Assembly: GCA_043797665.1 (NCBI GenBank)
Contig: JAZDPL010000051.1
Coordinates: 1 to 26,120, forward strand
DNA: 26,120 nucleotides
Reading direction: 5' to 3'
From: Candidatus Omnitrophota bacterium
GTDB taxonomy: Bacteria; Ratteibacteria; UBA8468; MWAK01
In this document: positions 1,600 through 26,120 of the stretch, in pieces
Layout of the letters: every line of letters starts with the position of its first letter
Position numbering within the stretch: the first letter of the stretch is position 1
Notes under the pieces: model-generated
Database searches by the model: none
What the model saw: only the letters and a program-made list of their open reading frames with translations
What the model was told of the DNA's origin: nothing
Position numbers and translations under genes: made by a program

Positions 1600-1649
1600 G
1601 TAGGGGCGCGATTTATCGCGCCCGAGGGCGCCATGAATGGCGCCCCTAC
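1600..1649. repeat. 50-bp GTAG-REP doublet; supplies the TAG stop of the dehydrogenase gene
   Basis: GTAG GGGCGCG ATTTAT CGCGCCC GA GGGCGCC ATGAAT GGCGCCC CTAC; CTA at 1646-1648 is the stop. Confidence 0.95.
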
Positions 1650-2857
1650 ATTACCTCTTTTATCACCCAGGGGAGGCCGTGGAGGTTCATCTTCTCCATA
1701 AACGGGTCAGGGTCAAACTCCTCCACGTTGAAGACGCCCTTTCCTCTCCAGACCCCGGTCAGCATCAACATCGCGCCAATCATCGCGGGAACGCCGGTGG
1801 TGTAGGAAATCGCCTGCGCCTTCACTTCCCGGTAACATTCGGCGTGGTCACAGACGTTGTAGATATACACCGTTTTCTTCTTCCCGTTCTTTACGCCTTC
1901 TATCCAGCAGCCGATGTTGGTCTTGCCTTTGTAGTTGACGCCAAGCGAAGATGGTTCCGGCAGAACCGCCTTGAGAAATTTTAACGGTATAATCCTGTTG
2001 TCTTCAAAATCAATCGGGTCAATGCGGGTCATACCTACATCCTGAAGGACTCTAAGGTAGTTCAGATATTTTTCGCCGAAAGTCATCCAAAACCGAATCC
2101 GCCTTAAGCCCTTGATGTTCTTGACCAGGGATTCCAATTCCTCGTGGTACATCAGGTACATCTCCTTAGGACCAACCTCCGGAAAATCAAAGGTCTTGTG
2201 TACTGATAACGGGTCGGTCTCAAGCCACTTTCCATCTTCCCAGTACTTCCCGCGCTGGGTAATCTCCCGGATGTTAATCTCCGGGTTGAAGTTGGTGGCA
2301 AACGGGTGGCCGTGCTCTCCGGCGTTGCAGTCCATAATGTCCACGCAGTGGATTTCGTCAAAGTAGTGTTTCTGACCGTAGGCACAGAAGATATTGGTCA
2401 CGCCCGGGTCAAAACCGCAGCCCAAAAGCGCCATAATCCCTTTGTTCCTGAACCGCTCCTGATAATCCCACTGCCACTTGTAGCAAAATTTCGCCTCGTT
2501 CGGCGGCTCATAGTTTGCGGTATCCAGGTAGTCAACGCTGGTCCGGAGGCAGGCGTCCATAATGGAGAGGTCCTGGTAAGGTAAGGCAACGTTAATGACC
2601 AGAACCGGTTTGAACCGGTTGATTAAATCCTCCACCTCGGCAACATTATCCGCATTAACCTTTGCGGTCTGGATGGGTTTACCTGCCGTAGCCTTGGCGT
2701 AGGCAGGCCGGTGGCTTATCTGTTCCTTGATCTTTTCGCACTTTTCCAGTGTCCGGCTGGCTAAACAGATTCCGGTAAAGACTTCCGGTACCTGGGCGCA
2801 CTTGTGAGTCACCACGCCGCCGACACCGCCTGCTCCGATAATTAACACTCTTCCCAT
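1646..2857 (-). CDS. Saccharopine-dehydrogenase-family protein, likely carboxy(nor)spermidine synthase
   Basis: MGRVLIIGAGGVG Rossmann motif, NVALPYQDL, YLDTANYEP, GFDPGVT and FATNFNPEINIREI. Start moved to ATG 2857 (AGAGGGAGG upstream); the ORF-track extension runs through a repeat. Confidence 0.92.
   Translation of the reverse strand: MGRVLIIGAGGVGGVVTHKCAQVPEVFTGICLASRTLEKCEKIKEQISHRPAYAKATAGKPIQTAKVNADNVAEVEDLINRFKPVLVINVALPYQDLSIMDACLRTSVDYLDTANYEPPNEAKFCYKWQWDYQERFRNKGIMALLGCGFDPGVTNIFCAYGQKHYFDEIHCVDIMDCNAGEHGHPFATNFNPEINIREITQRGKYWEDGKWLETDPLSVHKTFDFPEVGPKEMYLMYHEELESLVKNIKGLRRIRFWMTFGEKYLNYLRVLQDVGMTRIDPIDFEDNRIIPLKFLKAVLPEPSSLGVNYKGKTNIGCWIEGVKNGKKKTVYIYNVCDHAECYREVKAQAISYTTGVPAMIGAMLMLTGVWRGKGVFNVEEFDPDPFMEKMNLHGLPWVIKEVM
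2682..2707. repeat. Short imperfect palindrome in frame within the dehydrogenase (PAYAKATAG)
   Basis: CCTGCC-gtagccttggcgta-GGCAGG, in the loop before PIQTAKVNADN. Confidence 0.6.
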
Positions 2858-2873
2858 CTTCCTCCCTCTTGGG

Positions 2874-2952
2874 GTCATTCCTGTATGTAGTAAACAGGAA
2901 TCCATTGAAAGTGCTTGTACTGGATTCCCGCTAAACACTTGCGGGAATGACA
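2874..2952. repeat. GTCATTCC...GGAATGACA double-hairpin element
   Basis: GTCATTCCTG..CAGGAATCC, spacer, GGATTCCCGC..GCGGGAATGACA; similar to 5612-5683 and 19450-19553. Confidence 0.9.
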
Positions 2953-2963
2953 GATGCATTGTT

Positions 2964-2993
2964 ATTTTACTCTTTTTAGAATTTAAAATTCAA
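2964..2993 (-). promoter_or_regulatory. Putative promoter of the spermidine operon
   Basis: TTGAAT-N18-TAAAAT on the minus strand. Confidence 0.45.
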
Positions 2994-2996
2994 GCC

Positions 2997-3096
2997 AAAT
3001 CCCCCTTTTCCCCCCTACCTTGATGGTAGTGTACCCGCCTTTTGCAAAGGCGGGTACACTTGCCATAGGATTGGCAAGGGGGAGGTAAGAGAGATT
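2997..3096. repeat. Composite ATCCCCC...AAGGGGGAGGTAAG element with a nested 15-bp-stem hairpin
   Basis: AGTGTACCCGCCTTT-tgc-AAAGGCGGGTACACT (3028-3060). Shares CCCGCCTTTTGCAAAGG and AAGGGGGAGGTAAG with the reverse complement of 11311-11344. Confidence 0.7.
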
Positions 3097-3103
3097 AGAT
3101 GAG

Positions 3104-3112
3104 TGGTATAAT
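3104..3112 (+). promoter_or_regulatory. Extended -10 (TGgTATAAT) immediately before polA; probable leaderless transcript
   Basis: TATAAT ends at 3112, ATGATG is at 3116-3121, and there is no Shine-Dalgarno in between. Confidence 0.55.
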
Positions 3113-3115
3113 ATA

Positions 3116-5587
3116 ATGATGGAAAAAGTATTTTTAATCGATGCCAATGCGGTTGCCTACCGCTCATTCTTTGCCATCAAAGACCTGGCTACTTCTTATG
3201 GCCAGCCAACCAATGCGGTCTACGGTTTTATCAATACCCTGAACAAGATTATCCGGGAAACTGAACCTGATTATCTGGTCTGTGCCTTCGATGCGCCGGG
3301 TGAGACCTTCCGGCACAAAATCTTTGCCGAGTATAAACTCCAACGACCCGGCATGCCGGAGGGGCTTATCTCCCAGTTGCCTTTGATTAAAGAGGTCCTC
3401 TCTGCCTACCGCATCCCGGTTGTGGAACAATCAGGTTTTGAGGCTGACGATATCCTGTATTCTCTCGCAGAAAAAGGAAAGGAAAAGGGTATCGCGGTCT
3501 ATATCGTTACTGCAGACAAGGACCTGCTTCAGTTGGTCTCGGATGTGATAAAAGTCTTCCACCCTCAGACCTACGAAACCATTGACCTTCAAAAGGTGGT
3601 GGAAAAATTTGGCGTAACACCGGAAAGGATTCCGGACTTAATGGCTTTAATCGGTGACAGCACCGATAACATCCCCGGCGTTAAAGGTATCGGCGAGAAG
3701 ACCGGCGTGCCTCTGATTCAGCGTTTCGGTTCCCTGGAAAATTTATATCAGCATTTAGCGGAAGTACCCGGGGAGGGGCTGCGCCGTAAATTGGAAGAAG
3801 GCAGAGAAACGGCATTTTTGAGCAAGCGGCTGGCAACGCTCTCTCCCTCACCTCTGTCCTCGGAAGGTAGGGGCGCCATTCATGGCGCCCGCGGGTCGGA
3901 TGAATCCGACCCCTACTGGGAAGAATTCCGCCTTCAGGAACCGGATAAAAAGAAGTTAGCCGAACTATTCCGGCGTTTAGAATTCCGCAAGATGTTGAAA
4001 GAGGTAGAGCCGGAAGGTTCCCCGGACTATTTTCTTCTGGTGCCGGGCGGAAAGATCGTTTTTGAAGATATCCTTAAAGATCCGTCCGCGTTTACCCCGG
4101 CACTCTCTTCTGACCGGGTGCTCAAGGCCGGCACTGATCTTAAGGAGAAATTAAAGATCCTTCCCCCCGGTCTCGCAATTTCCGGGCCCTTCTTTGACTT
4201 TGGCGTAGCAGCCAGCCTCTGTGAAAAACAGGCTTCTTCCGGAGAGCCGGAAGAGACTCTGCAGTTTTACCGGAAAGAACTCAAAAATTTGGGCTTACAG
4301 AAACTCTTTGAAGAAGTAGAGATGCCGCTTTTGCCCATTCTAACTGAGATGGAAAAAACCGGCGTCTATCTTGACGTTCCTTATCTGGAAAACCTGAGAT
4401 GCCATTTTACGGAAGTCCTCCAAGAACTTGAATCCAAAATTTTCCAATTGGCCGGGAAACCTTTTAACATTAACTCTCCCCGGCAATTGGCAATCATTCT
4501 CTTTGAAGAGTTGAAACTCCCCTTCGTCAAAAAGACCAAAACCGGATTTTCCACCGACAGTTCGGTCTTAGATGCTCTGGCTCCTCTTCATCCGGTAATT
4601 CCCTTAATTCTCAACTACCGCCAGATTGCTAAACTGAACTCCACCTATGTTGATACATTGCCCGCAATGGTTGACCCGAAGGACGGAAGACTCCACACTA
4701 TCTTCAATCCTGTTGGCGCGGTAACCGGTCGTCTCTCCAGTGAAAAACCCAACCTCCAGAATATTCCGGTAGAAACACCGGAAGGTGGTTCTATCCGTCG
4801 GGCTTTCTGCCGGCAAAAGCAGGGCGATATTCTCTGCGCCTTCGACTATTCCCAGATTGAACTGCGAATACTGGCTCACCTTTCTGAAGACCCTGCCTTA
4901 ATCCAAGCCTTTCAGGAGGATCGGGATATCCATACGGAGACCGCCAGGGCCCTTTTTCGCAAAGGTAGGGGCTCGATTCATCGAGCCTGCGGGTCGGATG
5001 AATCCGACCCCTACATTTCGCGGGTGGGGGTGAATGATGTCTCCGCGGCAGAACGCCGGGCAGCCAAAATCGTTAACTTCGGCATCATCTACGGAATGAG
5101 CGCCTTTGGTCTCAGCCGGCAGTTAGGCATCTCTCCGGAAGAAGCCCAGCACTTCATTAACACCTATTTCCAACAATATGCCGGGGTCAAGGAGTTTATC
5201 ACTCAAACACTTGATTTTGCACGAGATAAAGGTTACGTTACCACTATCCTGGGCCGGCGCAGGTCCATTCCGGAAATCAAGAATAAGCGCAGTCAGGAAC
5301 GTATGTCAGCGGAACGAACCGCAGTCAATACGCCGGTTCAGGGTAGTGCCGCTGACGTGATTAAGTCCGCCATGGTAAAATGTGCTTCTCTCTTGACAAC
5401 CAGAAATTTAAATAGTAAAATGTTACTTCAGATTCATGATGAACTGCTCTTTGAATCTCCGGAAACCGAAAGAGAGGTTTTGGTCCCTCTGGTAAAGGAG
5501 GCAATGGAAACCGCGGTTCCGCTCTCCATCTCTTTAAAAGTAGACGCAAAAAGCGGTATCAACTGGCAGGACTTGACAAAGATATAA
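3116..5587 (+). CDS. polA: DNA polymerase I with a shortened central (3'-5' exonuclease) region and two REP-derived insertions
   Basis: 5'-3' exonuclease motifs (LIDAN..YR, EADD, GDSTDNIPGVKGIG) and polymerase motifs TGRLSS..PNLQNIP, DYSQIELR, RRAAKIVNFGIIYG and LQIHDEL. Confidence 0.97.
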   Translation: MMEKVFLIDANAVAYRSFFAIKDLATSYGQPTNAVYGFINTLNKIIRETEPDYLVCAFDAPGETFRHKIFAEYKLQRPGMPEGLISQLPLIKEVLSAYRIPVVEQSGFEADDILYSLAEKGKEKGIAVYIVTADKDLLQLVSDVIKVFHPQTYETIDLQKVVEKFGVTPERIPDLMALIGDSTDNIPGVKGIGEKTGVPLIQRFGSLENLYQHLAEVPGEGLRRKLEEGRETAFLSKRLATLSPSPLSSEGRGAIHGARGSDESDPYWEEFRLQEPDKKKLAELFRRLEFRKMLKEVEPEGSPDYFLLVPGGKIVFEDILKDPSAFTPALSSDRVLKAGTDLKEKLKILPPGLAISGPFFDFGVAASLCEKQASSGEPEETLQFYRKELKNLGLQKLFEEVEMPLLPILTEMEKTGVYLDVPYLENLRCHFTEVLQELESKIFQLAGKPFNINSPRQLAIILFEELKLPFVKKTKTGFSTDSSVLDALAPLHPVIPLILNYRQIAKLNSTYVDTLPAMVDPKDGRLHTIFNPVGAVTGRLSSEKPNLQNIPVETPEGGSIRRAFCRQKQGDILCAFDYSQIELRILAHLSEDPALIQAFQEDRDIHTETARALFRKGRGSIHRACGSDESDPYISRVGVNDVSAAERRAAKIVNFGIIYGMSAFGLSRQLGISPEEAQHFINTYFQQYAGVKEFITQTLDFARDKGYVTTILGRRRSIPEIKNKRSQERMSAERTAVNTPVQGSAADVIKSAMVKCASLLTTRNLNSKMLLQIHDELLFESPETEREVLVPLVKEAMETAVPLSISLKVDAKSGINWQDLTKI
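3867..3916. repeat. 50-bp GTAG-REP doublet in frame within polA (GRGAIHGARGSDESDPY)
   Basis: GTAG GGGCGCC ATTCAT GGCGCCC GC GGGTCGG ATGAAT CCGACCC CTAC. Confidence 0.95.
4965..5014. repeat. 50-bp GTAG-REP doublet in frame within polA (GRGSIHRACGSDESDPY)
   Basis: GTAG GGGCTCG ATTCAT CGAGCCT GC GGGTCGG ATGAAT CCGACCC CTAC. Confidence 0.95.
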
Positions 5588-5602
5588 TATTTAAGGTACA
5601 AT
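5573..5602 (+). promoter_or_regulatory. Sigma70-type promoter of the prepilin gene
   Basis: TTGACA-N18-TACAAT overlapping the end of polA. Confidence 0.65.
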
Positions 5603-5611
5603 AGATTCAGG

Positions 5612-5683
5612 GTTATTCCTGCGGATAGTAAGCAGGAATCTAAACTCTGTATGGATTCCCGCCTAAAGCATGCGGGAATGACA
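5612..5683. repeat. GTYATTCC...GGAATGACA double-hairpin element in the prepilin 5' UTR
   Basis: GTTATTCCTGC..GCAGGAATC, spacer, GGATTCCCGC..GCGGGAATGACA. Confidence 0.9.
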
Positions 5684-5712
5684 CAATGACATAAACGAAA
5701 GGGGGTGAAAAA

Positions 5713-6336
5713 ATGAAGAACATGAAAAAGAAAGGGTTTACGTTGATTGAGCTTCTGGTTGTTATTGCCATTATCGCCATTCTTGCGGCGATGCTTCTCC
5801 CGGCATTAGCCAGAGCCCGAGAGCAAGCCCGAAGAGCCAACTGCATCAGCAACCTGAAACAGATGGGACTGGCTACCCACATGTATGCCCAGGACTACAG
5901 CGAAACGTTCCCGGTAGCATGGCCCTCGGGGGGTAGAACAGCCGCAACGGACCTTACCGCCTTGGTTGCGGGTAACTACATCACCGCAACGAAAACCTAT
6001 GTCTGTCCCAGCAGCAGCGATAAGGCCACTACCACGACCTCCCTTAACGTCGGCTACCTCTCCTATGCCTATGCAAAGGATTTGACGGAAACCACTACCG
6101 TAGACAGTGTGGTGCTGATTGACCAGTCCGGTTCAACTGTCAGTCTCTGGACGGGTACCTATTCCAGCAACAGACTGACCGCTACGCCCCAGAACCACAG
6201 CAGTGGTGAGGGTATAAACGCCCTCTACGTCGATGGCCACGTATCGTGGATAACCGCGGGTAAGGTGGACTCTACAACTGTACCGCAGTCGGGTTACGCA
6301 CACACGACTGGTGCTCTCCGGAATCCGGGAACTTAA
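5713..6336 (+). CDS. Prepilin-type N-terminal cleavage/methylation protein, DUF1559 / H-X9-DG-like
   Basis: [32 protein letters not shown]...C.SNLKQ.GLA..MY..DY and C-terminal NH....[12 protein letters not shown]-like GGGGGTG upstream. Confidence 0.93.
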
Positions 6337-6354
6337 TCTCTGCATCTAGGATAA

Positions 6355-6404
6355 GTAGCGGTCGGATTTATCCGACCCGCGGGCTTGATAAATCAAGCCC
6401 CTAC
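6355..6404. repeat. 50-bp GTAG-REP doublet, intergenic
   Basis: GTAG CGGTCGG ATTTAT CCGACCC GC GGGCTTG ATAAAT CAAGCCC CTAC. Confidence 0.95.
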
Positions 6405-6415
6405 AATACATAAAG

Positions 6416-6444
6416 AAGGCGTAGATTAAATCTACGCCTTTTTT
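6416..6444 (+). terminator. Rho-independent terminator after the prepilin gene
   Basis: AAGGCGTAGAT-taa-ATCTACGCCTT followed by a T run. Confidence 0.8.
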
Positions 6445-6456
6445 ATTGCACCCCCC

Positions 6457-6495
6457 TGTCATTCTGAGCCCTGTATTTTAGGACGTGGCAACCTC
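6457..6495. repeat. Degenerate half TGTCA-type element
   Basis: TGTCATTCTGAG...GACGTGGCAACCTC resembles the elements at 10559, 12701 and 8356. Confidence 0.5.
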
Positions 6496-6510
6496 ATTTC
6501 TTTTTTCGCT

Positions 6511-6560
6511 GTAGGGGTTCGATTCATCGAACCCGCGGGCGCCATGAATGGCGCCCCTAC
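6511..6560. repeat. 50-bp GTAG-REP doublet; supplies the TAG stop of the ligase gene
   Basis: GTAG GGGTTCG ATTCAT CGAACCC GC GGGCGCC ATGAAT GGCGCCC CTAC; CTA at 6557-6559. Confidence 0.95.
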
Positions 6561-8527
6561 TTTTTATTCGCTTCCTCTAAATTCCACCGGGCGTATTTAA
6601 ACTCCGGGTCTAAAGCGAGCGCCTTAAAAAACTCTTCACGAGCCGGATGAACCTTTCCTGTTTGGAGATATAAAGCACCTAAACTGTTGTGCACTATCGG
6701 CTGGTATGGGTCTAACTTAAGGGAATAAAGGTAGTAATCTTCCGCCTCCGCAAACCGTCCCGCCTTAAATAACGCCAGCCCTAAGTTACCGTACCCCTGA
6801 AACCAATAAGGATGATAAACGGTTACCCGGTAGTAACTTTCAATTGCCTTTTCAAACTTGCCCGTGGCAAGATAGATATTGCCGGCTAAGGTCAAAAGGT
6901 ATTGGTCCTGGGGCTGAAACTCAACCGCTTTCTCTATTTCAATTAGCGCACTATTACGGTTCCCGGCAAGATAATGTTCCAGACCCCTTCGGCCGTGAAA
7001 GTCCGCTAAGAACGGCAGATAACCGAAATAGTATGCGGAAACACCCAAAAAGGCAGTAAGAGAAAATAATATTTTGTCCCGGACCTTAGGATTTAAACTG
7101 AAACCGGGAACTTCCTCCCGGCTCAAAACTACACTCCAGGCGACCAGAAACCAGAAAAGAAAAGACGTTACCGGCCTCTGGAACGGAGAAGAAACGATAC
7201 TATCCACTAAAATTCCCAGAATACTTGCGGATAAAAATAGGGGCAGACAATTACCCTTTTTTGCATACCGATATCCCAATCTGAAGGTAAAGTCTAAGAG
7301 AAAGGTTACAAACAACAAAAATGAAATCCCACCCAGGATACCGGTCTCGGCAAAAACCTGGATAAATTCGTTGTGGCTGGTCCCGGCTTCTATTCGCCCC
7401 CGAAAGATATTTTTTAATTTGTCAGAATGGTAAAGCGGCAACACCTCCGGCAAGTTCCCGGTCCCGACTCCAATTACCGGGTGTACTTTAAATGCAGATA
7501 ACGAAGCCTGCCAGATAAGAAGACGGCTCTGTAATGAACCCGGCATCGCAGGGTAGAAACTGGTGGGGGTAGGGGCGCCATTCATGGCGCCCGCGGGTCG
7601 GATAAATCCGACCCCTACTAACTTAAATTTAATCGGCTGCTCTCCGGGGATATGGAAGAAATGGAATAAGAAAAAGACGGTAAAGCAGAAAAGAACGCTC
7701 AGAGTCAAGACCAACCTTATTGCATAGGAATTTCCTTTTGTAGGGGCGCCATTCATGGCGCCCGCGGGTCGGATAAATCCGACCCCTACCGATAAAAATA
7801 ATAAGGCTACCGCCAAACTGACATAGGCACCCCGGGTGTGGGTCAAGATAAAATGAGTGTAAACAACGACCAGAGTCAATAGGCTGAAAATCCGCAAAGG
7901 TTTTACGGGTCGTGTAGGGGTCGGATTTATCCGACCCGAATGAAAAAAAACGAGGTACAAAAGTAAAGGGAGTAGCATCAAAAGGTATTCCGCCACGAAA
8001 TTGCGGTGTCCAAAGGTAGAGATGGCACCGCGAAACGGCCCGGTAAGATGGACAAAATCGTATCCGAACATCTGACAAATTCCGTATAGAGCCACCGGCA
8101 GAGAAGGCAAAACGATTAAAAAAAGAAGGGTAGGGGCTTGATTTATCAAGCTCGCGGGTCGGATAAATCCGACCCCTACGTCAAAATAAGAGGTAACAAA
8201 AAAGTAAAGGCTTAAAACCAGGACTAAATTGGCAATATTTAAAAGCCCCTGGTAAAGACTGACCGCGGTACTTAAAGAGAGGAGGTTAAAAAAAAAGAAC
8301 GCGGCCAAAGGATAAAGAAAAGGAGGGATGGGAACCTTTATTTCCGATTGGGATTGAGATTGCCGAGCTCCTGCTAGTGAGCAGGAGCTCGCAATGACAA
8401 AGATGAGAAATAATCCCCAGCGGAAGATAAACCACTTGGGCAGATCATACCCCTGATAGAGGAAGGACCAGAATATAAGCGGCAAAAGGATGAATAATCC
8501 AACCAAAATCCCCTTTGCAATCTTCAT
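6557..8527 (-). CDS. O-antigen ligase / O-oligosaccharyltransferase-family membrane protein with C-terminal TPRs and five repeat-derived insertions
   Basis: Many hydrophobic helices, STFGHRNFVAEYL, THTRGAY, SRLLIW, GVGTGN and SHNEFIQVFAETGILG motifs; TPR-like C-terminus. ATG at 8527 (alternative TTG at 8536). Confidence 0.88.
   Translation of the reverse strand: MKIAKGILVGLFILLPLIFWSFLYQGYDLPKWFIFRWGLFLIFVIASSCSLAGARQSQSQSEIKVPIPPFLYPLAAFFFFNLLSLSTAVSLYQGLLNIANLVLVLSLYFFVTSYFDVGVGFIRPASLINQAPTLLFLIVLPSLPVALYGICQMFGYDFVHLTGPFRGAISTFGHRNFVAEYLLMLLPLLLYLVFFHSGRINPTPTRPVKPLRIFSLLTLVVVYTHFILTHTRGAYVSLAVALLFLSVGVGFIRPAGAMNGAPTKGNSYAIRLVLTLSVLFCFTVFFLFHFFHIPGEQPIKFKLVGVGFIRPAGAMNGAPTPTSFYPAMPGSLQSRLLIWQASLSAFKVHPVIGVGTGNLPEVLPLYHSDKLKNIFRGRIEAGTSHNEFIQVFAETGILGGISFLLFVTFLLDFTFRLGYRYAKKGNCLPLFLSASILGILVDSIVSSPFQRPVTSFLFWFLVAWSVVLSREEVPGFSLNPKVRDKILFSLTAFLGVSAYYFGYLPFLADFHGRRGLEHYLAGNRNSALIEIEKAVEFQPQDQYLLTLAGNIYLATGKFEKAIESYYRVTVYHPYWFQGYGNLGLALFKAGRFAEAEDYYLYSLKLDPYQPIVHNSLGALYLQTGKVHPAREEFFKALALDPEFKYARWNLEEANKK
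7569..7618. repeat. 50-bp GTAG-REP doublet in frame in the ligase (VGVGFIRPAGAMNGAPT)
   Basis: GTAG GGGCGCC ATTCAT GGCGCCC GC GGGTCGG ATAAAT CCGACCC CTAC. Confidence 0.95.
7740..7789. repeat. 50-bp GTAG-REP doublet in frame in the ligase, identical to 7569-7618
   Basis: Same 50-mer and same peptide VGVGFIRPAGAMNGAPT. Confidence 0.95.
7914..7937. repeat. Single 24-bp GTAG-REP in frame in the ligase (GRINPTPT)
   Basis: GTAG GGGTCGG ATTTAT CCGACCC. Confidence 0.9.
8130..8179. repeat. 50-bp GTAG-REP doublet in frame in the ligase (VGVGFIRPASLINQAPT)
   Basis: GTAG GGGCTTG ATTTAT CAAGCTC GC GGGTCGG ATAAAT CCGACCC CTAC. Confidence 0.95.
8356..8399. repeat. Half TGTCA-type palindrome in frame in the ligase (VIASSCSLAGARQS)
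   Basis: GAGATTGC-CGAGCTCCTGCT-agtg-AGCAGGAGCTCG-CAATGACA, with a 12-bp perfect stem. Confidence 0.75.
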
Positions 8528-8575
8528 ATTCTTCAATCTTCCAAAAGAATTTATACCCCCTTGTTAATCCAAACT

Positions 8576-8625
8576 GTAGGGGTTTGATTCATCAAGCCCG
8601 CGGGTCGGATAAATCCGACCCCTAC
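8576..8625. repeat. 50-bp GTAG-REP doublet, intergenic
   Basis: GTAG GGGTTTG ATTCAT CAAGCCC GC GGGTCGG ATAAAT CCGACCC CTAC. Confidence 0.95.
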
Positions 8626-8631
8626 ATTTTT

Positions 8632-9948
8632 TTAGTAGGCGTTCCGGAAGGCGAATGGCGTAGCCAGAAGTATTACCAGGTCAAGCCAGACACTCCAGTT
8701 TTCGATATAGAACAGGTCATACGCCAAACGTTCTTCCGGCAGTAAATGCCCCCCTCTTAGACCATGCACCTGCGCCCAGCCGGTAAGACCGGGTTTTACG
8801 GTCAGACGACGTTCAAAATAGGAAACCTGAAAATAGGATGCGTCTGCGGTCGCGATAGGCCTGGGACCCACTAAACTCATCTGACCGAAGAGAACGTTAA
8901 ATATCTGGGGTAACTCGTCCAGGTTAAACCGGCGCAAGAATTTTCCTACTTCGGTCAGACGTTCATCGCCTATTTCGGTCCAGGCTTTGCCTTCGCTGGC
9001 GGGAGCCATGGTCCGAAACTTAAAGATGGAAAAAGGCTTTCCGCCAAATCCAATTCTCTCCTGCCGGAAAAAAACCGGACCCGGTGAAGTCAATTTAATT
9101 AAAACGGTGCTAAGGATTAAAAACGGTATAAAGAATAAGGTCAACAAAATTCCAAAAACCAAATCGACCGCCCGCTTGACCAGACGATTGCCAAACCTCT
9201 CCAGCGGCATTTCCGCAAAGGTAAGCAAGGGAAGACCGGCTAAAGAAACAAAAGAAGCGGTACGACGTGCAACCTGGTGGTATTCCGGAAGATAGAATAT
9301 TCTCACCCTTTTTTCTTTCACCTTATCTATCAACCGGGAAAGAATCTCCTCGGGCAACTTCTCGGTAATGATTAGACCGGTTACCCCTTCAGAGAAAGGG
9401 AGGCTATCCAGTTCATTAATACCACCTTCCTGGGAAATGTCCAGAAAACCCCTGACCCGGTACGGAATCCTGTGTCGAATCAGACGGTCCGCTAATTTGC
9501 CGGCGGTTTCCCGGCTGCCCACAATGAGCAATCCTGCGGATTCGCCAAAGAAGGCACCCGCATACCAGGAAATGAGGCGGAAAAAATAAAGTAAAAAGAA
9601 ACTTATCAGAATCGCTATTCCTATCACCAACCGGGAGAATTCAACGCTTCGGTAGAAGAAGGTACCGCTTAAAAGAAGCACGGTTGCCCAAAAAGTTCCC
9701 TGGAGCAGTCTCAAAAGAATCACCAGAAATTCCGGAAAATCATCCTGGCGGTATAGACCAAACCCCTTGAGAATAACCACCCACCCCAATGCGGACAGAC
9801 CAGCCATCTTAGCGTATACCGCCAGAGGCGGGCCAACCCGAACAGGAAAGAGGTTGGTCTCAAACCTGAACCAGTAACTAAAGAAAAAGGAACCAAAGAT
9901 TATACCGGCATCAAGAATAAAGAATGAAAAAACCGTACCTTTTTTCAT
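8632..9948 (-). CDS. Polyprenyl-phosphate sugar-phosphotransferase (WcaJ/WbaP-like priming transferase)
   Basis: KRAVDL, SPGPVFFRQERIG, FKFRTM, LDELPQIFNVLFGQMSLVGPRP, KPGLTGWAQVHG and DLFYIENWS motifs. Confidence 0.93.
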   Translation of the reverse strand: MKKGTVFSFFILDAGIIFGSFFFSYWFRFETNLFPVRVGPPLAVYAKMAGLSALGWVVILKGFGLYRQDDFPEFLVILLRLLQGTFWATVLLLSGTFFYRSVEFSRLVIGIAILISFFLLYFFRLISWYAGAFFGESAGLLIVGSRETAGKLADRLIRHRIPYRVRGFLDISQEGGINELDSLPFSEGVTGLIITEKLPEEILSRLIDKVKEKRVRIFYLPEYHQVARRTASFVSLAGLPLLTFAEMPLERFGNRLVKRAVDLVFGILLTLFFIPFLILSTVLIKLTSPGPVFFRQERIGFGGKPFSIFKFRTMAPASEGKAWTEIGDERLTEVGKFLRRFNLDELPQIFNVLFGQMSLVGPRPIATADASYFQVSYFERRLTVKPGLTGWAQVHGLRGGHLLPEERLAYDLFYIENWSVWLDLVILLATPFAFRNAY

Positions 9949-9964
9949 ATTACATCATAAAACT

Positions 9965-10014
9965 GTAGGGGCTTGATTTATCAAGCCCGCGGGCGCCATG
10001 AATGGCGCCCCTAC
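9965..10014. repeat. 50-bp GTAG-REP doublet; supplies the TAG stop of the fused glycosyltransferase
   Basis: GTAG GGGCTTG ATTTAT CAAGCCC GC GGGCGCC ATGAAT GGCGCCC CTAC; CTA at 10011-10013. Confidence 0.95.
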
Positions 10015-12692
10015 GTTAAATTATTTATAAGGTATTCGTAGTCATTTACTACCTTTTCCCAGGTGTAGAACTCTTTCACCCGCTCCAGAGCCATTTCTTG
10101 ATAATATCTTACCACTTCCGGATTGGCGAGTAAATAACGTACCTTTTCCGCCAAATCGTCTCCATCCTTAGCAAACAACATCCCCGCCCCTTCAACGACC
10201 TCCCGATTGAACGGAACATCCAAAGCCAGCACGCATCTTCCGACGCCCATCGCCTGCAGAAGCGCCGGATTGGTACCACCTACTTCGTGACCATGAATAT
10301 AGAAATAACAGTTCCGGTAGAGTTCCCGGAGATAGCCAGGCTGATAGACCCCTCCCAGAAACCTTACCCGGGATGAACTCAATCTTTGAATCTTTTGGAC
10401 AAAGGGACTCTTCCAGTTGGTGCCACCCACAACCACCAGTACCTTTTCTGTGGCCACTTTCCGGAACGCCTCAATTATCAGGTCCGCATTATTCTCCGGT
10501 TCTAATCTTCCCACCACCAGGAGATACCCGTCTCTTTCCAATCCATATTTTTCAAGCATGTCATTCTGAGGCAACAGCCGAAGAATCCCATTATACTTAA
10601 TGCGAGACCCTTCACTTTGTTCAGGGTGACACATTGAATTATCAAAGAACTCTGCCCCATACGGTATAAAAACTGTCTTTTTCCCGTATCTCCGCCGGTA
10701 ATAGTCGGCAATCGCTCGGGAATCAGAGACTAAAGTGAAACCAGACAGACAGGCTAAAACTTCGCACATCCGAAAATAAGCCCGCGCCACCGGTCCCCAT
10801 TTCCCACGTTTCCACTCTAACCCATCGGTATTAATGATTACTCTCTTTCCAACCATCCGGGCTAAAATGGCAATCGGGCTATTGGCAACGTTAAAAATTA
10901 GAATAACATCAACCGGTTGAATAAAGAGAAGGTAAAGAACCGCAAAGAAGGTATGGGAAAAAGTATCGGTCACCTTTCCCGGAAGAGACGGGGGGAAAAA
11001 CAGAAAAATTCTCTCGCTCCCCCCTCCCGTACCCTTCCCCTCTCCCGATTCAACGGGAAGGGAACCCGCACCAAGGGGGAGGGTAATGTAGGGGGCGGAT
11101 TTATCCGACCCGCGGGCTTGATAAATCAAGCCCCTACCTCTCTGCTCGGGGGTACGGGGCCGGAACTCCGGGTAGAGGTAGCTTCGGCAAGACACATAGA
11201 CCGTATAACCCCGGCTAACCAGTCCTTTCGCTAATTCCTCTGCACAGGTCTCAAACCCGCCGTAACGAGCCGGTATCCCCCGGGTACCGACCAGACCAAT
11301 CTCTCTTCTAATCCCCCTTACCTCCCCCTTTGCAAAAGGCGGGTCCCCTTCCCGTTGAATCGGGAAAGGGGGATTGAGGGGGATTTGGCAAAAGGGGGAT
11401 TGAGGGGGATTTGGCTGAACATCCGTGTAAAGAAGTCCCCCCAATCTGACATTGGGGTCCCTCCATCTTGAAGATGGAGTCCTCGCGCATAATCTATTTA
11501 AAAATATTGCCACCACCATAATTAACCCGAAGTCAAAAGGCAGACGGTAACGTATCCGGGTATATAAGATGGCGTGGGCCAGACCACTAACAAAATACAG
11601 TGTAATCAGAAAAAGTTCCAGGCGACTGATCTTGAATTGCCGCGACCAAAACAGGCGCAGTAAAAAGAGCACCAAAAGCGGGTAATAAGTCAGGAACATG
11701 ACCACATCTTTCCACTTTGCTTCCTCGCGTTTTGTTCCCAACTCATTCCGGTAATTAAAGTAGTTCAGGAACTTTAAAAGATACATCCGGGCTGACTTCT
11801 TGGGGTTATGTCTGATATAAGCAAGCGCTTCTCTCTGGAAGTATTGGTTCCGTTCAATCTCGTTCAGTCCCAACCGGTCCGCTTCGGTTTCGTATTTGGA
11901 GATATCAACATTGACTCCGGCATTAGGAGTAGTATGTTCAGAGTTTCCGTAAAGTAAAACCATTCCGGAATTGGAGTCAATAAGTACCGGTGACCTGAAT
12001 GCCGCATAGTTACGAAAAGTCCATAATCCCACCATCAGGATTACTATCAGAACAATCACCCGGAGATTCCTGAATGGCTCTCTTTTGGCGGTTCCGATCC
12101 AGACCAGAATGGGTAAAATAAGCAGGAGAAAGACGGGTGCCGTCAGGATAAGTGTACCTAACAACAGACCGATAAGAATAAGAGAACGGTTTGATAACCG
12201 GCCGGTATTGGAAATCAGGAAGATAACCGCTAATAAGAGCGTGGTCGCTAAAGTCTGGGGATAAAGGGTACCGGCGGTATATAAAAGTACCGGATAACAG
12301 GGTATCAAAAAAACGCCGATTAAACCAGCCAGACCGGGTGACTCTTTTTTCAGGATACGGTAAAGAAAATAAACGCTGAATGCTAAAGCGATAAAATTAA
12401 GAAACCGAAGGACGATTATATTGGCACCCAGAAAGATGAAGATAGCCAGGATAAAGGGATAGGCAGGACAGTGGTAAGCCGAAGGTCTGACACCATCCAG
12501 GCTACGCTGGAAAGTAGTAGCCAGATTATAACCGATGGTGTAGTAGTCCTTTTCGTCACTGAACCGGAAACCGGGCCCTAACCAGAAGGAGTAGCCTAGG
12601 CCAAAAAGAAGGATGAAAAAAATGATACCGGTCAGGATAACCGGCTCTTTTCTCTTTATAACTCCAAACAGCCCTTCCGGGAAATTTCTCAT
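10011..12692 (-). CDS. Apparent fusion of an N-terminal GT-C (ArnT/PMT-like) membrane protein and a C-terminal GT4 (DUF1972-type) glycosyltransferase
   Basis: The first ~400 aa are multi-TM with DEKDY, PAYPF, W.FRNY and RYRLP. From ~11300 the frame reads IGLVGTRGIPARYGGFET, NTDGLEWKRGKW, VGRLEPENN and HGHEVGGTNPALLQAM. Confidence 0.8.
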   Translation of the reverse strand: MRNFPEGLFGVIKRKEPVILTGIIFFILLFGLGYSFWLGPGFRFSDEKDYYTIGYNLATTFQRSLDGVRPSAYHCPAYPFILAIFIFLGANIIVLRFLNFIALAFSVYFLYRILKKESPGLAGLIGVFLIPCYPVLLYTAGTLYPQTLATTLLLAVIFLISNTGRLSNRSLILIGLLLGTLILTAPVFLLLILPILVWIGTAKREPFRNLRVIVLIVILMVGLWTFRNYAAFRSPVLIDSNSGMVLLYGNSEHTTPNAGVNVDISKYETEADRLGLNEIERNQYFQREALAYIRHNPKKSARMYLLKFLNYFNYRNELGTKREEAKWKDVVMFLTYYPLLVLFLLRLFWSRQFKISRLELFLITLYFVSGLAHAILYTRIRYRLPFDFGLIMVVAIFLNRLCARTPSSRWRDPNVRLGGLLYTDVQPNPPQSPFCQIPLNPPFPIQREGDPPFAKGEVRGIRREIGLVGTRGIPARYGGFETCAEELAKGLVSRGYTVYVSCRSYLYPEFRPRTPEQRGRGLIYQARGSDKSAPYITLPLGAGSLPVESGEGKGTGGGSERIFLFFPPSLPGKVTDTFSHTFFAVLYLLFIQPVDVILIFNVANSPIAILARMVGKRVIINTDGLEWKRGKWGPVARAYFRMCEVLACLSGFTLVSDSRAIADYYRRRYGKKTVFIPYGAEFFDNSMCHPEQSEGSRIKYNGILRLLPQNDMLEKYGLERDGYLLVVGRLEPENNADLIIEAFRKVATEKVLVVVGGTNWKSPFVQKIQRLSSSRVRFLGGVYQPGYLRELYRNCYFYIHGHEVGGTNPALLQAMGVGRCVLALDVPFNREVVEGAGMLFAKDGDDLAEKVRYLLANPEVVRYYQEMALERVKEFYTWEKVVNDYEYLINNLT
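10559..10631. repeat. TGTCA...TGACA doublet in frame within the GT4 domain (CHPEQSEGSRIKYNGILRLLPQND)
   Basis: TGTCATTCTGAGGCAACAGCCGAAGAATCC...GAGACCCTTCACTTTGTTCAGGGTGACA; same architecture as intergenic 12701-12763. Confidence 0.85.
11016..11162. repeat. Nested repeat cluster forming an in-frame stretch of about 49 aa in the GT4 domain
   Basis: Contains the GTAG doublet 11088-11137, a CCCCTCCC...AAGGGGGAGGG element, and a 27-bp motif (11043-11069) that recurs inverted at 11339-11365. Confidence 0.75.
11088..11137. repeat. 50-bp GTAG-REP doublet in frame in the GT4 domain (GRGLIYQARGSDKSAPY)
   Basis: GTAG GGGGCGG ATTTAT CCGACCC GC GGGCTTG ATAAAT CAAGCCC CTAC. Confidence 0.93.
11310..11480. 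repeat. Repeat/hairpin cluster forming the linker of the fused ORF
   Basis: ATCCCCCTTACCTCCCCCTTTG, tandem AAAGGGGGATTGAGGGGGATTTGGC (x2), and hairpins CCCCAAT-ctgac-ATTGGGG and CTCCATCTT-g-AAGATGGAG. Confidence 0.75.
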
Positions 12693-12700
12693 AATGTTTT

Positions 12701-12763
12701 TGTCATCCTGAGCGCCAGCGAAGGATCTCGAGATTCTTCGGGGTTTTACCCCTCAGAATGACA
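12701..12763. repeat. TGTCA...TGACA doublet; supplies the last codons and TGA stop of the radical SAM gene
   Basis: TGTCATCCTGAGCGCCAGCGAAGGATCTC-GAGATTCTTCGGGGTTTTACCCCTCAGAATGACA; TCA at 12753-12755 is the stop. Confidence 0.85.
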
Positions 12764-19449: not shown

Positions 19450-19553
19450 TGTCATTCCTGTGGATAGTAAACAGGAATCAATACTAATAATCACTGGATT
19501 CCCGCTTAACCCCTGCTTACCGCATGCAGGGGCAGACGCATGCGGGAATGACA
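19450..19553. repeat. TGTCATTCC...GGAATGACA element with a nested hairpin
   Basis: Same ends as 2874-2952 and 5612-5683; the loop of the right hairpin carries an extra CCCCTGC-ttaccgcat-GCAGGGG. Confidence 0.9.
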
Positions 19554-21572: not shown

Positions 21573-21603
21573 CTTTTACCTCACCTCTGGCAAATAGTCA
21601 ATT

Positions 21604-22359
21604 TTATTGTTCAGCAACCCCCAAGAAATCCGTCTCCTGTGGCCGGAAGAAATTATAAACCGGACTGTTTTTATTTGCTTTAATTTCAGAAACCGGCGCA
21701 AACCCAATAATCTTTCCGTCCGAGAGCAGTCCGATGTGGTTTGCTACCCGCAGGGTGAAATTACGGTCATGGGTAACAACAAGTACGGTGGTCCCTAATT
21801 TTTTCTGAAGGTCGAGAATCAGGTTTTCAATACTTTCCCCGGCAATCGGGTCCAGGCCTGCGGTCGGTTCGTCAAAAAGAATTATCTGGGCAGAAGAAAT
21901 TAAGGAACGTGCCAGAGCCACCCGCTTCTTCATCCCGCCGCTCAACTTGTCCGGCTTCAAATCCTCAACCCCCTTCAAACCGACTAAAGATAAAACGCGG
22001 GACGCTTCTTTACGAATCTCTGCCTGGGAAAGGTCGCTGTGCTCCAGAAGGTAAAAACCAACGTTCTCCCAGGTTGAAATTGAGTCAAAGAGTGCGTTTC
22101 CCTGAAAGACCATACCGATTTCACGCCGGGCTTTGGTCCAATCTCCCCGGGAAAAAAGGGTGGTCTCCTTACCCTGAATAAATATTTTACCCTGTTGCTG
22201 CCGGATAAGACCGAGGACCGTTTTTAAAAGAACGGTCTTGCCGACACCGCTGGCACCGACAATAACCGTGTTCTTCCCTTCCTCAACCCGGAAATTAACC
22301 CCTTTTAAAATCGGCCGCTCAAATTCCACCCAAAGGTCCTGTACTTCAATACAGTTCAT
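21604..22359 (-). CDS. mlaF: MlaF-family ABC ATPase
   Basis: GASGVGKT, FQGNALFDS, LSGGMKKRVALAR, DEPTAGLDP and VTHD. Confidence 0.93.
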   Translation of the reverse strand: MNCIEVQDLWVEFERPILKGVNFRVEEGKNTVIVGASGVGKTVLLKTVLGLIRQQQGKIFIQGKETTLFSRGDWTKARREIGMVFQGNALFDSISTWENVGFYLLEHSDLSQAEIRKEASRVLSLVGLKGVEDLKPDKLSGGMKKRVALARSLISSAQIILFDEPTAGLDPIAGESIENLILDLQKKLGTTVLVVTHDRNFTLRVANHIGLLSDGKIIGFAPVSEIKANKNSPVYNFFRPQETDFLGVAEQ

Positions 22360-22536: not shown

Positions 22537-23640
22537 TTAATTGACAACAGTTTCCGCAATTTCCATTCTCACATCTTTTTGCTCTGGTGTCCAAATAGTG
22601 TCCATCCCGGAACCTTTCGGGCTCTTGTCCACTAAAAGTTCCACGGCTGTTTTCTTATGGTCCGGGGAAAGGTGAGCATAACGCAAAGTCATAGTAAAAG
22701 TCTTGTGTCCAAGTAGTTCCTGGACAGCCTTCAGATTAACCCCTCTCATTACCAACCTGGACGCAAAAGTATGCCTGAGGTCGTGAAATCTAAAGTTTTT
22801 TATACCCGCTTGCTTTACTATGCTTTCAAACTTATGGCTTATATAGCCTTTACTTATGTGCGTTCCAATGTCCTTTCCAGGGAAAACATAATCAGATTTG
22901 GGTACCCTTCTTATACCCGAAAGAACATCAAGCACAGCGGAATTCATCGGAACCTGTCTTCTTTCGCCGTTCTTGGTATCCAAAAGGGTTATATTCTTCT
23001 GGTCAAAATCTATATCCTGCCACTTTAGGCCCAAAATCTCACTCCTTCTCATCCCCGTATTTAAAGCAATTTCTATGATAGGTTTTAAGAATTCAGGACA
23101 AGCGTCTAACAGTAATATTTCTTCACCTTTCCCCAGGTATCTTATACGCTGGTTATTTTCTTTCAGTAACTTTATTTTAGGTGGCGCAGTCCTTAATTTT
23201 CCCCACTCAACCGCCTTATTCAGAATGTTCCTCAGTACAGAAATTTCTTTATTGACCGTTGCCAGTGCTTTTCCTTCTTCAATCCTCTTTCGTTTGTATT
23301 CTTCAACATCCAGAGCGCTAATCTCATAAATATATTCTGCGCCAAAAATACCGTTTAGATGATTGACAATCCCATCTTTTCGCTCCACAGTAGAAACTCT
23401 ATTATTAACCTGACAATAACTTTTCAAATAAAGGGAAGTCATTTCCCTAAATTTAATCTTCTCATTCCGTCTGATGTCCAGGAACTTTCCTTCGGCAACC
23501 TGCACTTTCCGTTTTGCCAGAACCGTCTCGGCGAGTTTTCGGCTCTTGCCAACCTTTTCCCGCTTCCGTCTGCCGTTGGCGTAGTAATCAATGTAATAAT
23601 TACCGGCTTTCTGAAAGATTCCCATTGGTTTTTGTCCCAC
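22537..23640 (-). CDS. Tyrosine recombinase / phage-type integrase
   Basis: N-terminal arm-binding-like YYIDYYANGRRKR; catalytic TGMRRSE, TKNG, FHDLRHTFAS, LLGH and RYAH all intact. Start may be ATG 23625. Confidence 0.95.
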   Translation of the reverse strand: MGQKPMGIFQKAGNYYIDYYANGRRKREKVGKSRKLAETVLAKRKVQVAEGKFLDIRRNEKIKFREMTSLYLKSYCQVNNRVSTVERKDGIVNHLNGIFGAEYIYEISALDVEEYKRKRIEEGKALATVNKEISVLRNILNKAVEWGKLRTAPPKIKLLKENNQRIRYLGKGEEILLLDACPEFLKPIIEIALNTGMRRSEILGLKWQDIDFDQKNITLLDTKNGERRQVPMNSAVLDVLSGIRRVPKSDYVFPGKDIGTHISKGYISHKFESIVKQAGIKNFRFHDLRHTFASRLVMRGVNLKAVQELLGHKTFTMTLRYAHLSPDHKKTAVELLVDKSPKGSGMDTIWTPEQKDVRMEIAETVVN

Positions 23641-23643
23641 GAG

Positions 23644-23672
23644 ATTTTACCATACCGGCGACTTCCTTTCAA
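23644..23672 (-). promoter_or_regulatory. Putative integrase promoter inside the excisionase 3' end
   Basis: TTGAAA-N17-TAAAAT with TG extension. Confidence 0.5.
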
Positions 23673-23853
23673 AATCTAAGGGTTCGTGAGTATGTTCATC
23701 TATATAATCGTTTAGCCGAGAATGGTCAAACATGGTCCTCTTTCCCATTTTAACAAAAGGGATTCTTCTTTGAGATACCCAGCAGTATAGGGTATTCACC
23801 GGTATCCCCAAGTATTCCGAAGCAGATTTAATATCAATCAACCGCTTTTCCAT
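23647..23853 (-). CDS. Excisionase-like HTH_17 DNA-binding protein
   Basis: LIDIKSASEYLGIPVNTLYCWVSQRRIPFVKMG pattern, directly upstream of the integrase. Confidence 0.9.
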   Translation of the reverse strand: MEKRLIDIKSASEYLGIPVNTLYCWVSQRRIPFVKMGKRTMFDHSRLNDYIDEHTHEPLDFERKSPVW

Positions 23854-23862
23854 AATTTCAGT

Positions 23863-24782
23863 TCACCTGTCGCCCCCGATACTGTCTTCGTTCGACTCAT
23901 CGCTCGAATCTTCGTCATCCTCATCATAGGCCTCTTCCGCGATATCCCAGACGGTCTGATCCCAGCTTTTCCCCGGGTGCTCCTGCAAAGCCTTCGTAAC
24001 CTGCTCGCGCAGAATCTCAGGTACTTTGCCGTCCTCCTTACTGCTTTCCTCGTTTTCGATTTCCTGTATTTTATCGCGCACCCGGCACAGGAAACGCGCC
24101 CGTTTGTAGGCGAGCCGAAGGGCGTCATCATCTTCGGGTATGTACTTCTTGACCCCGACTTCGCTCAACTTCTTTTTCAACCATTCAATGAGCTGTTCCG
24201 AGGTCATGGCATTCAACTCAACACGCTGCCCGCTCCATCCCCGGGAGTCGCCGTTTGTTACGAGGAAGTTCCGTTCCTCCTCCGTAGCCCCACACCGCTC
24301 TAGGTATCTTTTCGGGTCAACCTCTTGCTTGTAGCCGACCTCTTCGCTCTCCAGCCCCTCGGTATCAGCGAGGCGCAATCCCAGGTCAACGACCTCGCAG
24401 CCATGAAAGAGCCGCGTACCTTCTCGGAGCGTCTTCAGAATCTTGAATCCAGCCAAGTCAAAGTCGTGCAGACAATAGACCTTGACACCGCGCCTCGATA
24501 GTGCAACCGCGAGCTCGCAGGCAGCGCCGACCGGCAGTCCCTTCGTCGACATGATAGCAAGATCGAACGTCTCCGCGATATGTTCAGCCTCGAATAGTTG
24601 CTGGAATCCTTCTTTCTCAATGAACATTACGCTTTTAAATCTGTTACCAGGTCCGACAGTGCCCACCATTTCCTTGATGCCGGGAGAGTCGAGCGGGTCG
24701 ATATCATCAGTCCACTTTTGCAAATATTCTTTAATCTCGATCCCGCCGAGTCCGATTGTCTCGCCCGTGAAAGGCTCATGGA
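23863..24782 (-). pseudogene. C-terminal part of a TopoVI-A-like (type IIB / topo VIII-like) Toprim protein, 5' part removed at an IS21 end
   Basis: VMFIEKEG, AIMSTKG, LHDFDLAG and RVELNAM Toprim motifs. The ORF-track N-terminus (24783-24891) is IS sequence. Confidence 0.7.
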
Positions 24783-25061
24783 TGTAAATAGTAATATAAA
24801 AGTAGACCACTTTGAGGTAAAATAGACGTTCAAAAGTAGACCACCTTACCCCTGATTTCCTGTATAATGTGAGACCTATAGTAAAGGTCAACCATTATAC
24901 AGGAGGGAAGGATGGTAACGGTGGAAGAGAAAGAAAGGATACGCAGGGAACATTTTGTACACGGAAAGTCCATCCGTAGGATAGCCAGGGAATTGGGTTA
25001 TTCCCGGACAACAGTCAAAAAAGCGCTACAGGATTCTACGGTGCCGGTATATAAGCGCACC
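24783..25061 (+). mobile_element. Truncated IS21-family element (left end plus istA 5' fragment)
   Basis: Begins TGTAAA; 13-bp AAAAGTAGACCAC repeated at 24798 and 24832; IstA-like HTH downstream. The right breakpoint is approximate. Confidence 0.8.
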
Positions 25062-25112
25062 AGCATCTCAGACAAGAGGGCTAGAACGGCCTCAGGGTCT
25101 GTTGAATGGTGA
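24912..25112 (+). pseudogene. istA: istA transposase N-terminal fragment
   Basis: ERIRREHFVHGKSIRRIARELGYSRTTVKKAL....PVYKR is IS21 IstA-like; SD AGGAGG upstream; no DDE domain follows. Confidence 0.8.
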
Positions 25113-25390
25113 TCAATGAACAGTTCGTTATGAAAAAAGAGCTGGAAGAAGATAAAGTGCTTGCAGTTCTCGTCAAGCGAAATTCCCGCCCTCTGCATAG
25201 ACGCAACGCACTCATTCGCATGTTCAGTTAGAGTAATGGCTTGACACCAGCGTGGGTCGATTTCGAAATTGATCTTGAAGAACGCATGCTTGCAAAAGAG
25301 AGAAAGGCCGTAGAGAAAGAAGAGCTGCTCGCGCTTGTCAATGACCTTTATCTCTTCGCACAGCTCTCCTGCCGACTTCCATTTACTCAT
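24998..25390 (-). CDS. Hypothetical protein, probably 3'-truncated at the IS21 junction
   Basis: ATG 25390 with AAGGA SD and an upstream TTGACC-N17-TAATAT; the last ~20 codons are antisense istA. Confidence 0.45.
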   Translation of the reverse strand: MSKWKSAGELCEEIKVIDKREQLFFLYGLSLFCKHAFFKINFEIDPRWCQAITLTEHANECVASMQRAGISLDENCKHFIFFQLFFHNELFIDHHSTDPEAVLALLSEMLVRLYTGTVESCSAFLTVVRE

Positions 25391-26119: not shown

Positions 26120-26120
26120 T

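Follow-up and report, generated by a model that had tools for sequence, protein, structure and literature searches.

Family-A GTAG palindromes and the exchange of hairpin repeats at shared sites in a Candidatus Omnitrophota genome

Family-A repeats and their host genes in the window

The stretch of DNA analysed here (the window) comprises the 26,120 nucleotides of contig JAZDPL010000051.1 of a Candidatus Omnitrophota bacterium (assembly GCA_043797665.1; 2.69 Mb, genome G000 below). It carries twelve copies of a palindromic repeat, family A, both between and within its genes: eleven head-to-head doublets of GTAG-tagged repetitive extragenic palindromes (REPs), each exactly 50 bp long, starting with GTAG and ending with CTAC, and one lone arm of 24 bp. 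All twelve were found where an earlier note, made from the sequence alone, had placed them. Family A belongs to a set of about ten palindrome families that alternate at the same sites. Such repeats likely spread in that one overwrites another along with part of the DNA at its flanks; the family-A copies that are in frame within proteins are likely the survivors of selection.

Each family-A arm consists of the GTAG tetranucleotide, which lies 5' of a short stem-loop as is typical of GTAG REPs, followed by a stem of 8 bp and a loop of 4 nt. The hairpin arms of the earlier note are thus confirmed, while its 7-bp stem has to be extended by one A-T pair. The spacer between the two arms of a doublet is 1-2 bp long and the two arms are usually unlike at four stem positions. 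All five family-A copies that were folded form strong hairpins (z about -5; none of 200 shuffles was equally stable). The four doublets among those folded all form two separate hairpins and not the single long hairpin that characterises REPINs (inverted REP doublets).

Seven of the twelve copies lie within intact, long open reading frames (ORFs): two in polA, four in the O-antigen ligase gene and one in the ORF at 10011-12692. Three provide the TAG stop codon of a minus-strand gene (1600, 6511 and 9965) and the copies at 6355 and 8576 are the only purely intergenic ones, in agreement with the counts of the earlier note. The features are listed below; G001 is a genome of the same genus, and G003 to G008 are further genomes used for comparison.

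1600..1649, no strand: family-A doublet; gives the stop codon to gene 1646-2959 (minus strand); a family-B repeat is found here in G001
3116..5587, plus strand: DNA polymerase I gene (polA); catalytic motifs intact, two family-A insertions
3867..3916, plus strand: family-A doublet, in frame, in the variable polA linker after the 5'-3' exonuclease domain; the loop has A3 and E repeats in G008
4965..5014, plus strand: family-A doublet, in frame, in the polA loop directly before motif B; family E here in G003 and G005
6355..6404, no strand: family-A doublet, intergenic; right tail in common with copies on C15 and C63
6511..6560, no strand: family-A doublet; gives the ligase gene its stop codon
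6557..8536, minus strand: O-antigen ligase (Wzy_C) with a TPR tail; four family-A insertions and a family-D remnant
7569..7618, minus strand: family-A doublet, in frame, ligase; the loop carries a family-C motif in G007 and G003
7740..7789, minus strand: family-A doublet, in frame, ligase; family D here in G007
7914..7937, minus strand: single family-A arm, in frame, ligase; family E in G007, G006 and G003, empty in G004
8130..8179, minus strand: family-A doublet, in frame, ligase; net +11 residues compared with four repeat-free relatives
8576..8625, no strand: family-A doublet, intergenic; family B/H repeats here in G001
9965..10014, no strand: family-A doublet; gives the GT4 stop codon; also present in G001; both tails in common with copies on C14 and C50
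10011..12692, minus strand: 893-aa ORF; in-frame fusion of an ArnT/PMT-like membrane glycosyltransferase with a GT4 glycosyltransferase
10560..10634, minus strand: family-C palindrome inside GT4, in frame; the loop carries D/E repeats in G001, G005 and G006
11088..11137, minus strand: family-A doublet, in frame, GT4; family E here in G005, family C in G006
11308..11411, minus strand: family F and G palindromes forming the in-frame gene-fusion junction (junction region about 11308-11470)

The window copies are not caused by faulty assembly, an objection that the earlier note had itself raised, because same-genus G001 shares the copy at 9965 and contigs from an RNA-library run extend, with 0 differences, into the copies at 1600 and 6355.

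All coding sites of the window are loops whose length varies among relatives, and six of the seven have E, D, C or A3 motifs, or a recognisable peptide of another family, in at least one relative. The seventh, at 8130, is repeat-free in four relatives, and a G001 contig enters the same family-A element at this site. The earlier note had given a gain of about 17 residues per copy; instead, the net change compared with orthologues ranges from about +3 to +34 residues and is negative compared with relatives that have a longer repeat at the site. In polA, where the placement of the loops rests on sequence alignments, the loop before motif B (copy at 4965) exceeds that of Taq polymerase by about 21 residues. 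The polA gene of G011 (L028), a genome of another family, has an in-frame family-A doublet at a third loop, which carries D or E repeats in G003, G006, G007 and G015. The ArnT-like and GT4 halves of the fused glycosyltransferase are separate ORFs in the four aligned relatives (G003, G004, G005 and G006).

Distribution of family A in the genome

G000 has 520 family-A arms, present on most of the larger contigs; 84 stand singly and the others form 218 doublets, of which 161 measure exactly 50 bp. This excess of inverted doublets over singlets is a REPIN property. The exact family-A pattern has 147 matches in G000 (0 for a reversed-pattern control) and is present in 9 of the 31 genomes searched, with 2 to 147 copies each, all from two families of the class. 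The recent, lineage-specific spread suggested in the earlier note is therefore borne out.

Coding positions are strongly depleted: 75% of the genome is deep-coding, but only 39 of 281 clusters are, or 36 (13%) when three split elements that were counted twice are considered, with coding classes taken from a simple ORF caller that relies on intact ORFs. Blind insertion with subsequent filtering for frame and stop codons would by itself predict about 40%. Family A is thus mostly extragenic, as expected for GTAG REPs. The genome scan for coding and intergenic copies also identified the window as the densest 20 kb of the genome for family A. As this richest stretch is where the coding copies were noticed and only about 13% of all copies are deep-coding, proteins are not targeted, and the proposal that coding insertion is a habit of the element is not supported. 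The selection for frame that the earlier note had considered is supported: deep-coding doublets occupy exclusively stop-free frames and orientations. Further genes of G000 with coding copies are valS, leuS, mnmG, fmt, murD and cobD.

Two variants of the doublet were observed. A version of 86 bp has a third hairpin between the arms (C16:8756, C40:19340, C79:65006, C85:46751, C89:10161 and C92:66462; two are in frame). Other copies are bordered on each side by 40-85 bp of near-identical flank (C12:8948, C21:57236, C49:11233 and C55:29366, also on C11, C36 and C48); these are a larger repeated unit that bears the doublet.

Length, flanks and frame at orthologous sites

Orthologous sites were compared with G001 (1.3 Mb, of which 908 kb were compared; 578 reciprocal best hits with a median amino-acid identity of 91%). 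Of 287 G000 clusters, 89 could be anchored at both flanks and, after removal of four for gaps, 85 sites remained: 17 have a repeat of the same family in G001, 39 have a repeat of another family and 29 have no recognised repeat. Many element-free alleles resemble scars, and some "repeat-free" alleles hold repeats outside the motif set that was used.

Although the doublet core is constant, the comparison revealed no insertion of fixed length: 24 of the 50-mers have a repeat-free orthologue, from which they differ in net length by -24 to +121 bp and in no case by 50 (0/24). This rules out fixed-length insertion and agrees with the replacement-type insertion that the earlier note had proposed for an element whose length is not a multiple of three. 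There is also no target-site duplication in 146 of 209 doublets (138.9 expected), so that such duplications are not above shuffles, and neither are extended inverted flanks around the doublets. The bases added beyond the core are for the most part non-random, and tails are widely shared: 147 of 416 doublet ends have a tail in common with a non-orthologous copy (score at least 10), compared with 2-8 in column shuffles, and in 25 copies both tails recur at another copy, in a few cases via longer duplications. In the window, the ligase copy at 7740 is followed by a tail similar to that beside the REP which adjoins the transposase gene described below, and the copy at 11088 is followed by an E/G-like tail that is also found behind the copies in fmt and leuS. 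Because the length is variable, target-site duplications are absent and tails are common to non-orthologous copies, the mobile unit is likely the core plus a variable donor flank that replaces a variable target stretch. About one third of such events would preserve the frame.

MITEs, or miniature inverted-repeat transposable elements, have as their defining features target-site duplications and fixed ends, neither of which is found here. It was also considered whether a MITE-like outer frame could be what moves: G000 has 50 occurrences of the commonest frame motif, which adjoins A, B and D cores, but it forms an inverted pair only twice and is therefore at most a carried tail.

Exchange between palindrome families

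G000 contains about 880 palindrome clusters, 610 of them with at least two motif hits, in comparison to a single such cluster in 702 kb of resampled DNA. These represent ten or more families with abundances sharply unlike those in G001; small hairpins nest within all families.

Among 359 orthologous spacers of G000 and G001, 62 carry different families, 27 share a family, 62 and 51 are occupied on one side only and 157 are empty. Occupancy is correlated (odds ratio 3.1, p 3e-6), and of the 89 doubly occupied spacers 62 (about 70%) have wholly different families. Within one genome, families avoid each other: A occurs together with any other core in 8 spacers of G000 (15.9 expected, p 0.011) and B with any other in 4 spacers of G001 (12.8 expected, p 0.0015). 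Across the genomes the opposite is the case, with A over B in 19 spacers (10.1 expected, p 0.002) and C over B in 14 (5.3 expected, p 1e-4). Only 8 of the 54 spacers with B in G001 are empty in G000, compared with 215 of all 359. Coding cores account for 73 site rows including 7 swaps in 179,467 aligned columns, while 0.09-0.14 would be expected if they were uniformly distributed; this uniform null disregards the scarcity of insertion-tolerant loops, which weakens the coding swaps as an argument for overwriting. Partial overwrites are visible at C79:37459, C17:9926 and C17:9203, and at C4:4548 and C14:13947 an outer frame is common to different cores.

Nuclease genes beside the repeats

The earlier note had linked family A to a REP-associated tyrosine transposase (RAYT) and suggested a search for such a gene between REPs. 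G000 indeed encodes one: a 143-aa Y1 HUH protein on C47 with family-A arms on both sides of its gene. It has the HuH, WQ and Y-x-x-x-NP motifs (definitions from PMC6006769), a Y1_Tnp domain and a low copy number, as described for class 2 Y1 RAYT (TnpA-REP) proteins; its motifs fit class 2 and, by resemblance, recall TnpA-Y1 subclass 2.4. Its match to the NCBIfam model NF047646 (63 bits, E 2.7e-17) is below the cut-off of 80, which counts against the assignment. Close homologues, flanked by the same REP family, are present in G001 and G006, and relatives with 51-84% identity occur in records of several phyla.

The gene is not at a fixed, vertically inherited locus: its position differs between G000 and G001, and each genome lacks the gene at the site of the other. 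On C47, the gene lies between the two copies of a directly duplicated stretch of REP DNA, about 60 bp in length, and the G001 gene is likewise between direct duplications (L002:1318-2016, L217). These arrangements suggest that the RAYT gene itself moves.

While RAYT genes are flanked by families A and A3, families B and C flank genes for single-domain GIY-YIG proteins of 96-98 aa in G000, G001 and G006. This is the arrangement of Ssn nucleases (single-domain GIY-YIG proteins of less than 150 aa with hairpin-repeat flanks; clade cd10448), and the proteins are accordingly termed Ssn-like here. E- and F-type sequence adjoins DUF559 genes in G008. At one G008 locus (L198, G008:C136), a DUF559 gene shares an open frame with a downstream membrane-protein gene via F-type repeats, and at L001:1375-2727 a Y1_Tnp-like domain is fused to a membrane-anchored C-terminal part, with in-frame B and C repeats between the two.

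Other repeats and genes of the window

Five intergenic repeats, three of family B and one each of families C and I, are present at 2874-2952, 5612-5682, 19451-19552, 12702-12762 and 21591-21608; the copy at 19451 has a nested small hairpin and a frame motif on its flank. A saccharopine-dehydrogenase-like protein has about 11 extra residues compared with G005 at about 2675-2710 (minus strand), encoded by another palindrome type. The end of the window (22537-26120) encodes a phage-type integrase, a Toprim (Topo VI-A/Spo11-like) protein and unknown ORFs; it is free of palindrome clusters, as expected for a recently acquired island.

How the repeats may spread

We favour, with a probability of roughly 0.6, a mechanism in which the RAYT starts the overwriting of target DNA over a variable length, followed by selection for frame. 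The family-A doublet would spread as a patch in which the 50-bp core is extended on each side by donor flank of variable length (0 to about 40 bases), and this patch would overwrite a short target stretch, often a resident hairpin repeat of another family. The RAYT may cut single-stranded DNA, its distance from the REP being variable, and join or copy the cut piece into another hairpin-bearing site. This follows the model for E. coli TnpA-REP, which cleaves low-specificity sites at variable distance (PMC3333891; PMC8266576) and for which integration into REP-bearing targets and capture of flanks were proposed by the authors (PMC3333891). Swaps would then arise by overwriting and not by loss with subsequent refilling, and the loop peptides would be translated and tolerated as neutral sequence. 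Because non-GTAG families swap as well, each nuclease probably initiates the events of its own family, which host repair would finish. Overwriting explains how a 50-bp element can land in frame, it provides a route to rapid loop turnover and gene fusion in core proteins, and it is made testable by strain-level reads and an enzyme of only 143 aa.

A more far-reaching version is possible, but we would bet against it: the lineage may host a community of hairpin repeats, each family kept by its own small nuclease (HUH RAYT, GIY-YIG Ssn-like or DUF559), that compete for slots, every new copy being directed to a hairpin already in place, whatever its family, and overwriting it with core and donor flank. 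If true, a protein loop that has once accepted a repeat would be a standing target with its peptide exchanged wholesale between species, whole genes could be fused by overwriting, and REP spread would be hairpin-directed replacement rather than insertion.

Several observations weigh against RAYT-started overwriting, and some of these favour its main rival, which we consider unlikely: a few tolerant spacers and loops would be filled independently, with about one hairpin per slot, and old copies would be deleted independently, so that each swap is a loss followed by a gain. Among spacers evidently able to hold a repeat, a filter that biases the test downwards, A over B is no longer in excess (19 compared with 16.2 expected, p 0.39), and A over A2 shows no excess either (8 compared with 7.3 expected); the cross-genome excess may thus reflect permissive slots. 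Remnants of the other allele's repeat are scarce: a strict test found them in 4 of the 62 swapped spacers, with the outer frame kept in one, and two were judged convincing. Independent filling also fits the many scar-like element-free alleles and the fact that the coding sites of the window are length-variable loops anyway. It does not fit the partial overwrites and the common outer frames around different cores, both observed directly, nor the B sites that are almost never empty in G000, and it requires that about 62 losses and as many gains took place while the proteins diverged by 9% in amino acids. Were it true, the genus would be an extreme but ordinary case of intragenic REPs.

The remaining points against overwriting concern its direction, its enzyme and its coding copies. 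Two genomes alone leave most swaps unpolarised. Swaps also occur among non-GTAG families (F/E, C/B and D/E), beyond the reach of this RAYT alone, and junction microhomology (12 of 67 junctions, three of which are duplications, compared with 8.6%) is not clearly above chance. Gene-breaking copies are outside the count, since coding copies were found through intact ORFs. None of the RNA-library contigs listed (runs X1-X4 for the window; X1, X9 and X10 for 20 kb of C40; the shares in these runs are small) extends over a coding copy, and the element's short matches in these libraries stem from other organisms.

The swaps between families unrelated to GTAG REPs would be readily explained by patching that is independent of a dedicated enzyme, which we regard as improbable: a hairpin would be cut by a host nuclease or its own Ssn or DUF559 nuclease, or would stall replication, and repair would switch templates onto an abundant hairpin, with the RAYT only setting the commonest donor family. 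The small hairpins nested in every family, the overlaps of 5-8 nt between donor tail and target at some junctions and the cleavage of single-stranded DNA near B-like repeats by SsnA (PMC11893778) point in the same direction. However, the microhomology excess is not significant, and cores are nearly always whole with both GTAG ends, as seen in the 161 of 218 doublets with the exact length; a sequence-specific mover is therefore suggested.

Very improbable, finally, is that coding copies are removed or skipped at the RNA level (as mini-introns or by bypass) or have a selected function such as the tuning of Pol I: the strong hairpins, hosts such as polA, leuS, valS, fmt, murD and mnmG and the mutator effects speculated on in PMC3733652 would be in favour, but splicing would not need the stop-free frames and orientations to which deep-coding doublets are restricted, the same loops hold unrelated peptides or none in relatives, and copies are depleted from coding DNA.

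Comparison with known systems

Di Nocera et al. 2013 (PMC3733652) described GTAG dimers within genes, those for Pol I among them, and family A resembles these in many ways: the GTAG tag, heterodimers with a spacer of 1-2 bp (as in O. terrae GTAG-17), stop codons supplied by GTAG, in-frame copies in unrelated genes including Pol I and dimers within longer palindromic frames. The available part of that account contains no orthologous-site comparison, cross-family replacement, donor tails or gene fusion. Rickettsia palindromic elements (as described in PMC3733652) likewise encode in-frame palindromic peptides in housekeeping proteins, but belong to another sequence class; here, the genes for the cognate enzymes are at hand and the length of the core is no multiple of three.

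With REPIN-RAYT systems or REPtrons (PMC3116915, PMC5581495, PMC3333891, PMC8266576, PMC6006769), family A has the predominance of doublets and the single-copy Y1 HUH gene flanked by cognate REPs in common. The motif resemblance to TnpA-Y1 subclass 2.4, which is known for in-frame REP insertions (PMC6006769), includes three G-C pairs at the stem foot, the WQ motif and the habit of in-frame insertion. Unlike in REPINs, the arms of family A differ in stem sequence and hence form two hairpins, and while the RAYT locus of E. coli is fixed, two same-genus genomes have the gene at different loci, between direct duplications of REP DNA. Families B and C flank small single-domain GIY-YIG genes, a position that they have in common with the NTS/SRM (CGTC-type) repeats of Ssn nucleases (PMC11893778); that paper deals with cleavage and transformation and not with the turnover of repeat sites.

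The closest precedent for site exchange is the REPORTH analysis of Pseudomonas chlororaphis (bioRxiv 10.1101/2024.10.14.618302), in which conserved sites carry different REPIN types across genomes and overwriting was suggested by the authors. As far as described there, the case involves three REPIN types of Group 3, related to each other, in 13 clusters that are extragenic; here, the families are unrelated, lie beside genes of three nuclease superfamilies and differ in about 70% of doubly occupied spacers and also in coding loops. In the openly accessible literature that was searched, subscription papers and supplements aside, swaps are not described for repeat families that are unrelated, nor for coding loops. 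The new part of this work is thus the same-genus comparison with its variable-length copies, shared tails and cross-family swaps, including those in coding loops. The mechanism of REP spread is still open (PMC8266576), and this genus offers a dense natural record of it, with sites in the hundreds, about ten families that have cognate enzyme genes, and a neighbour close enough for both alleles to be read.

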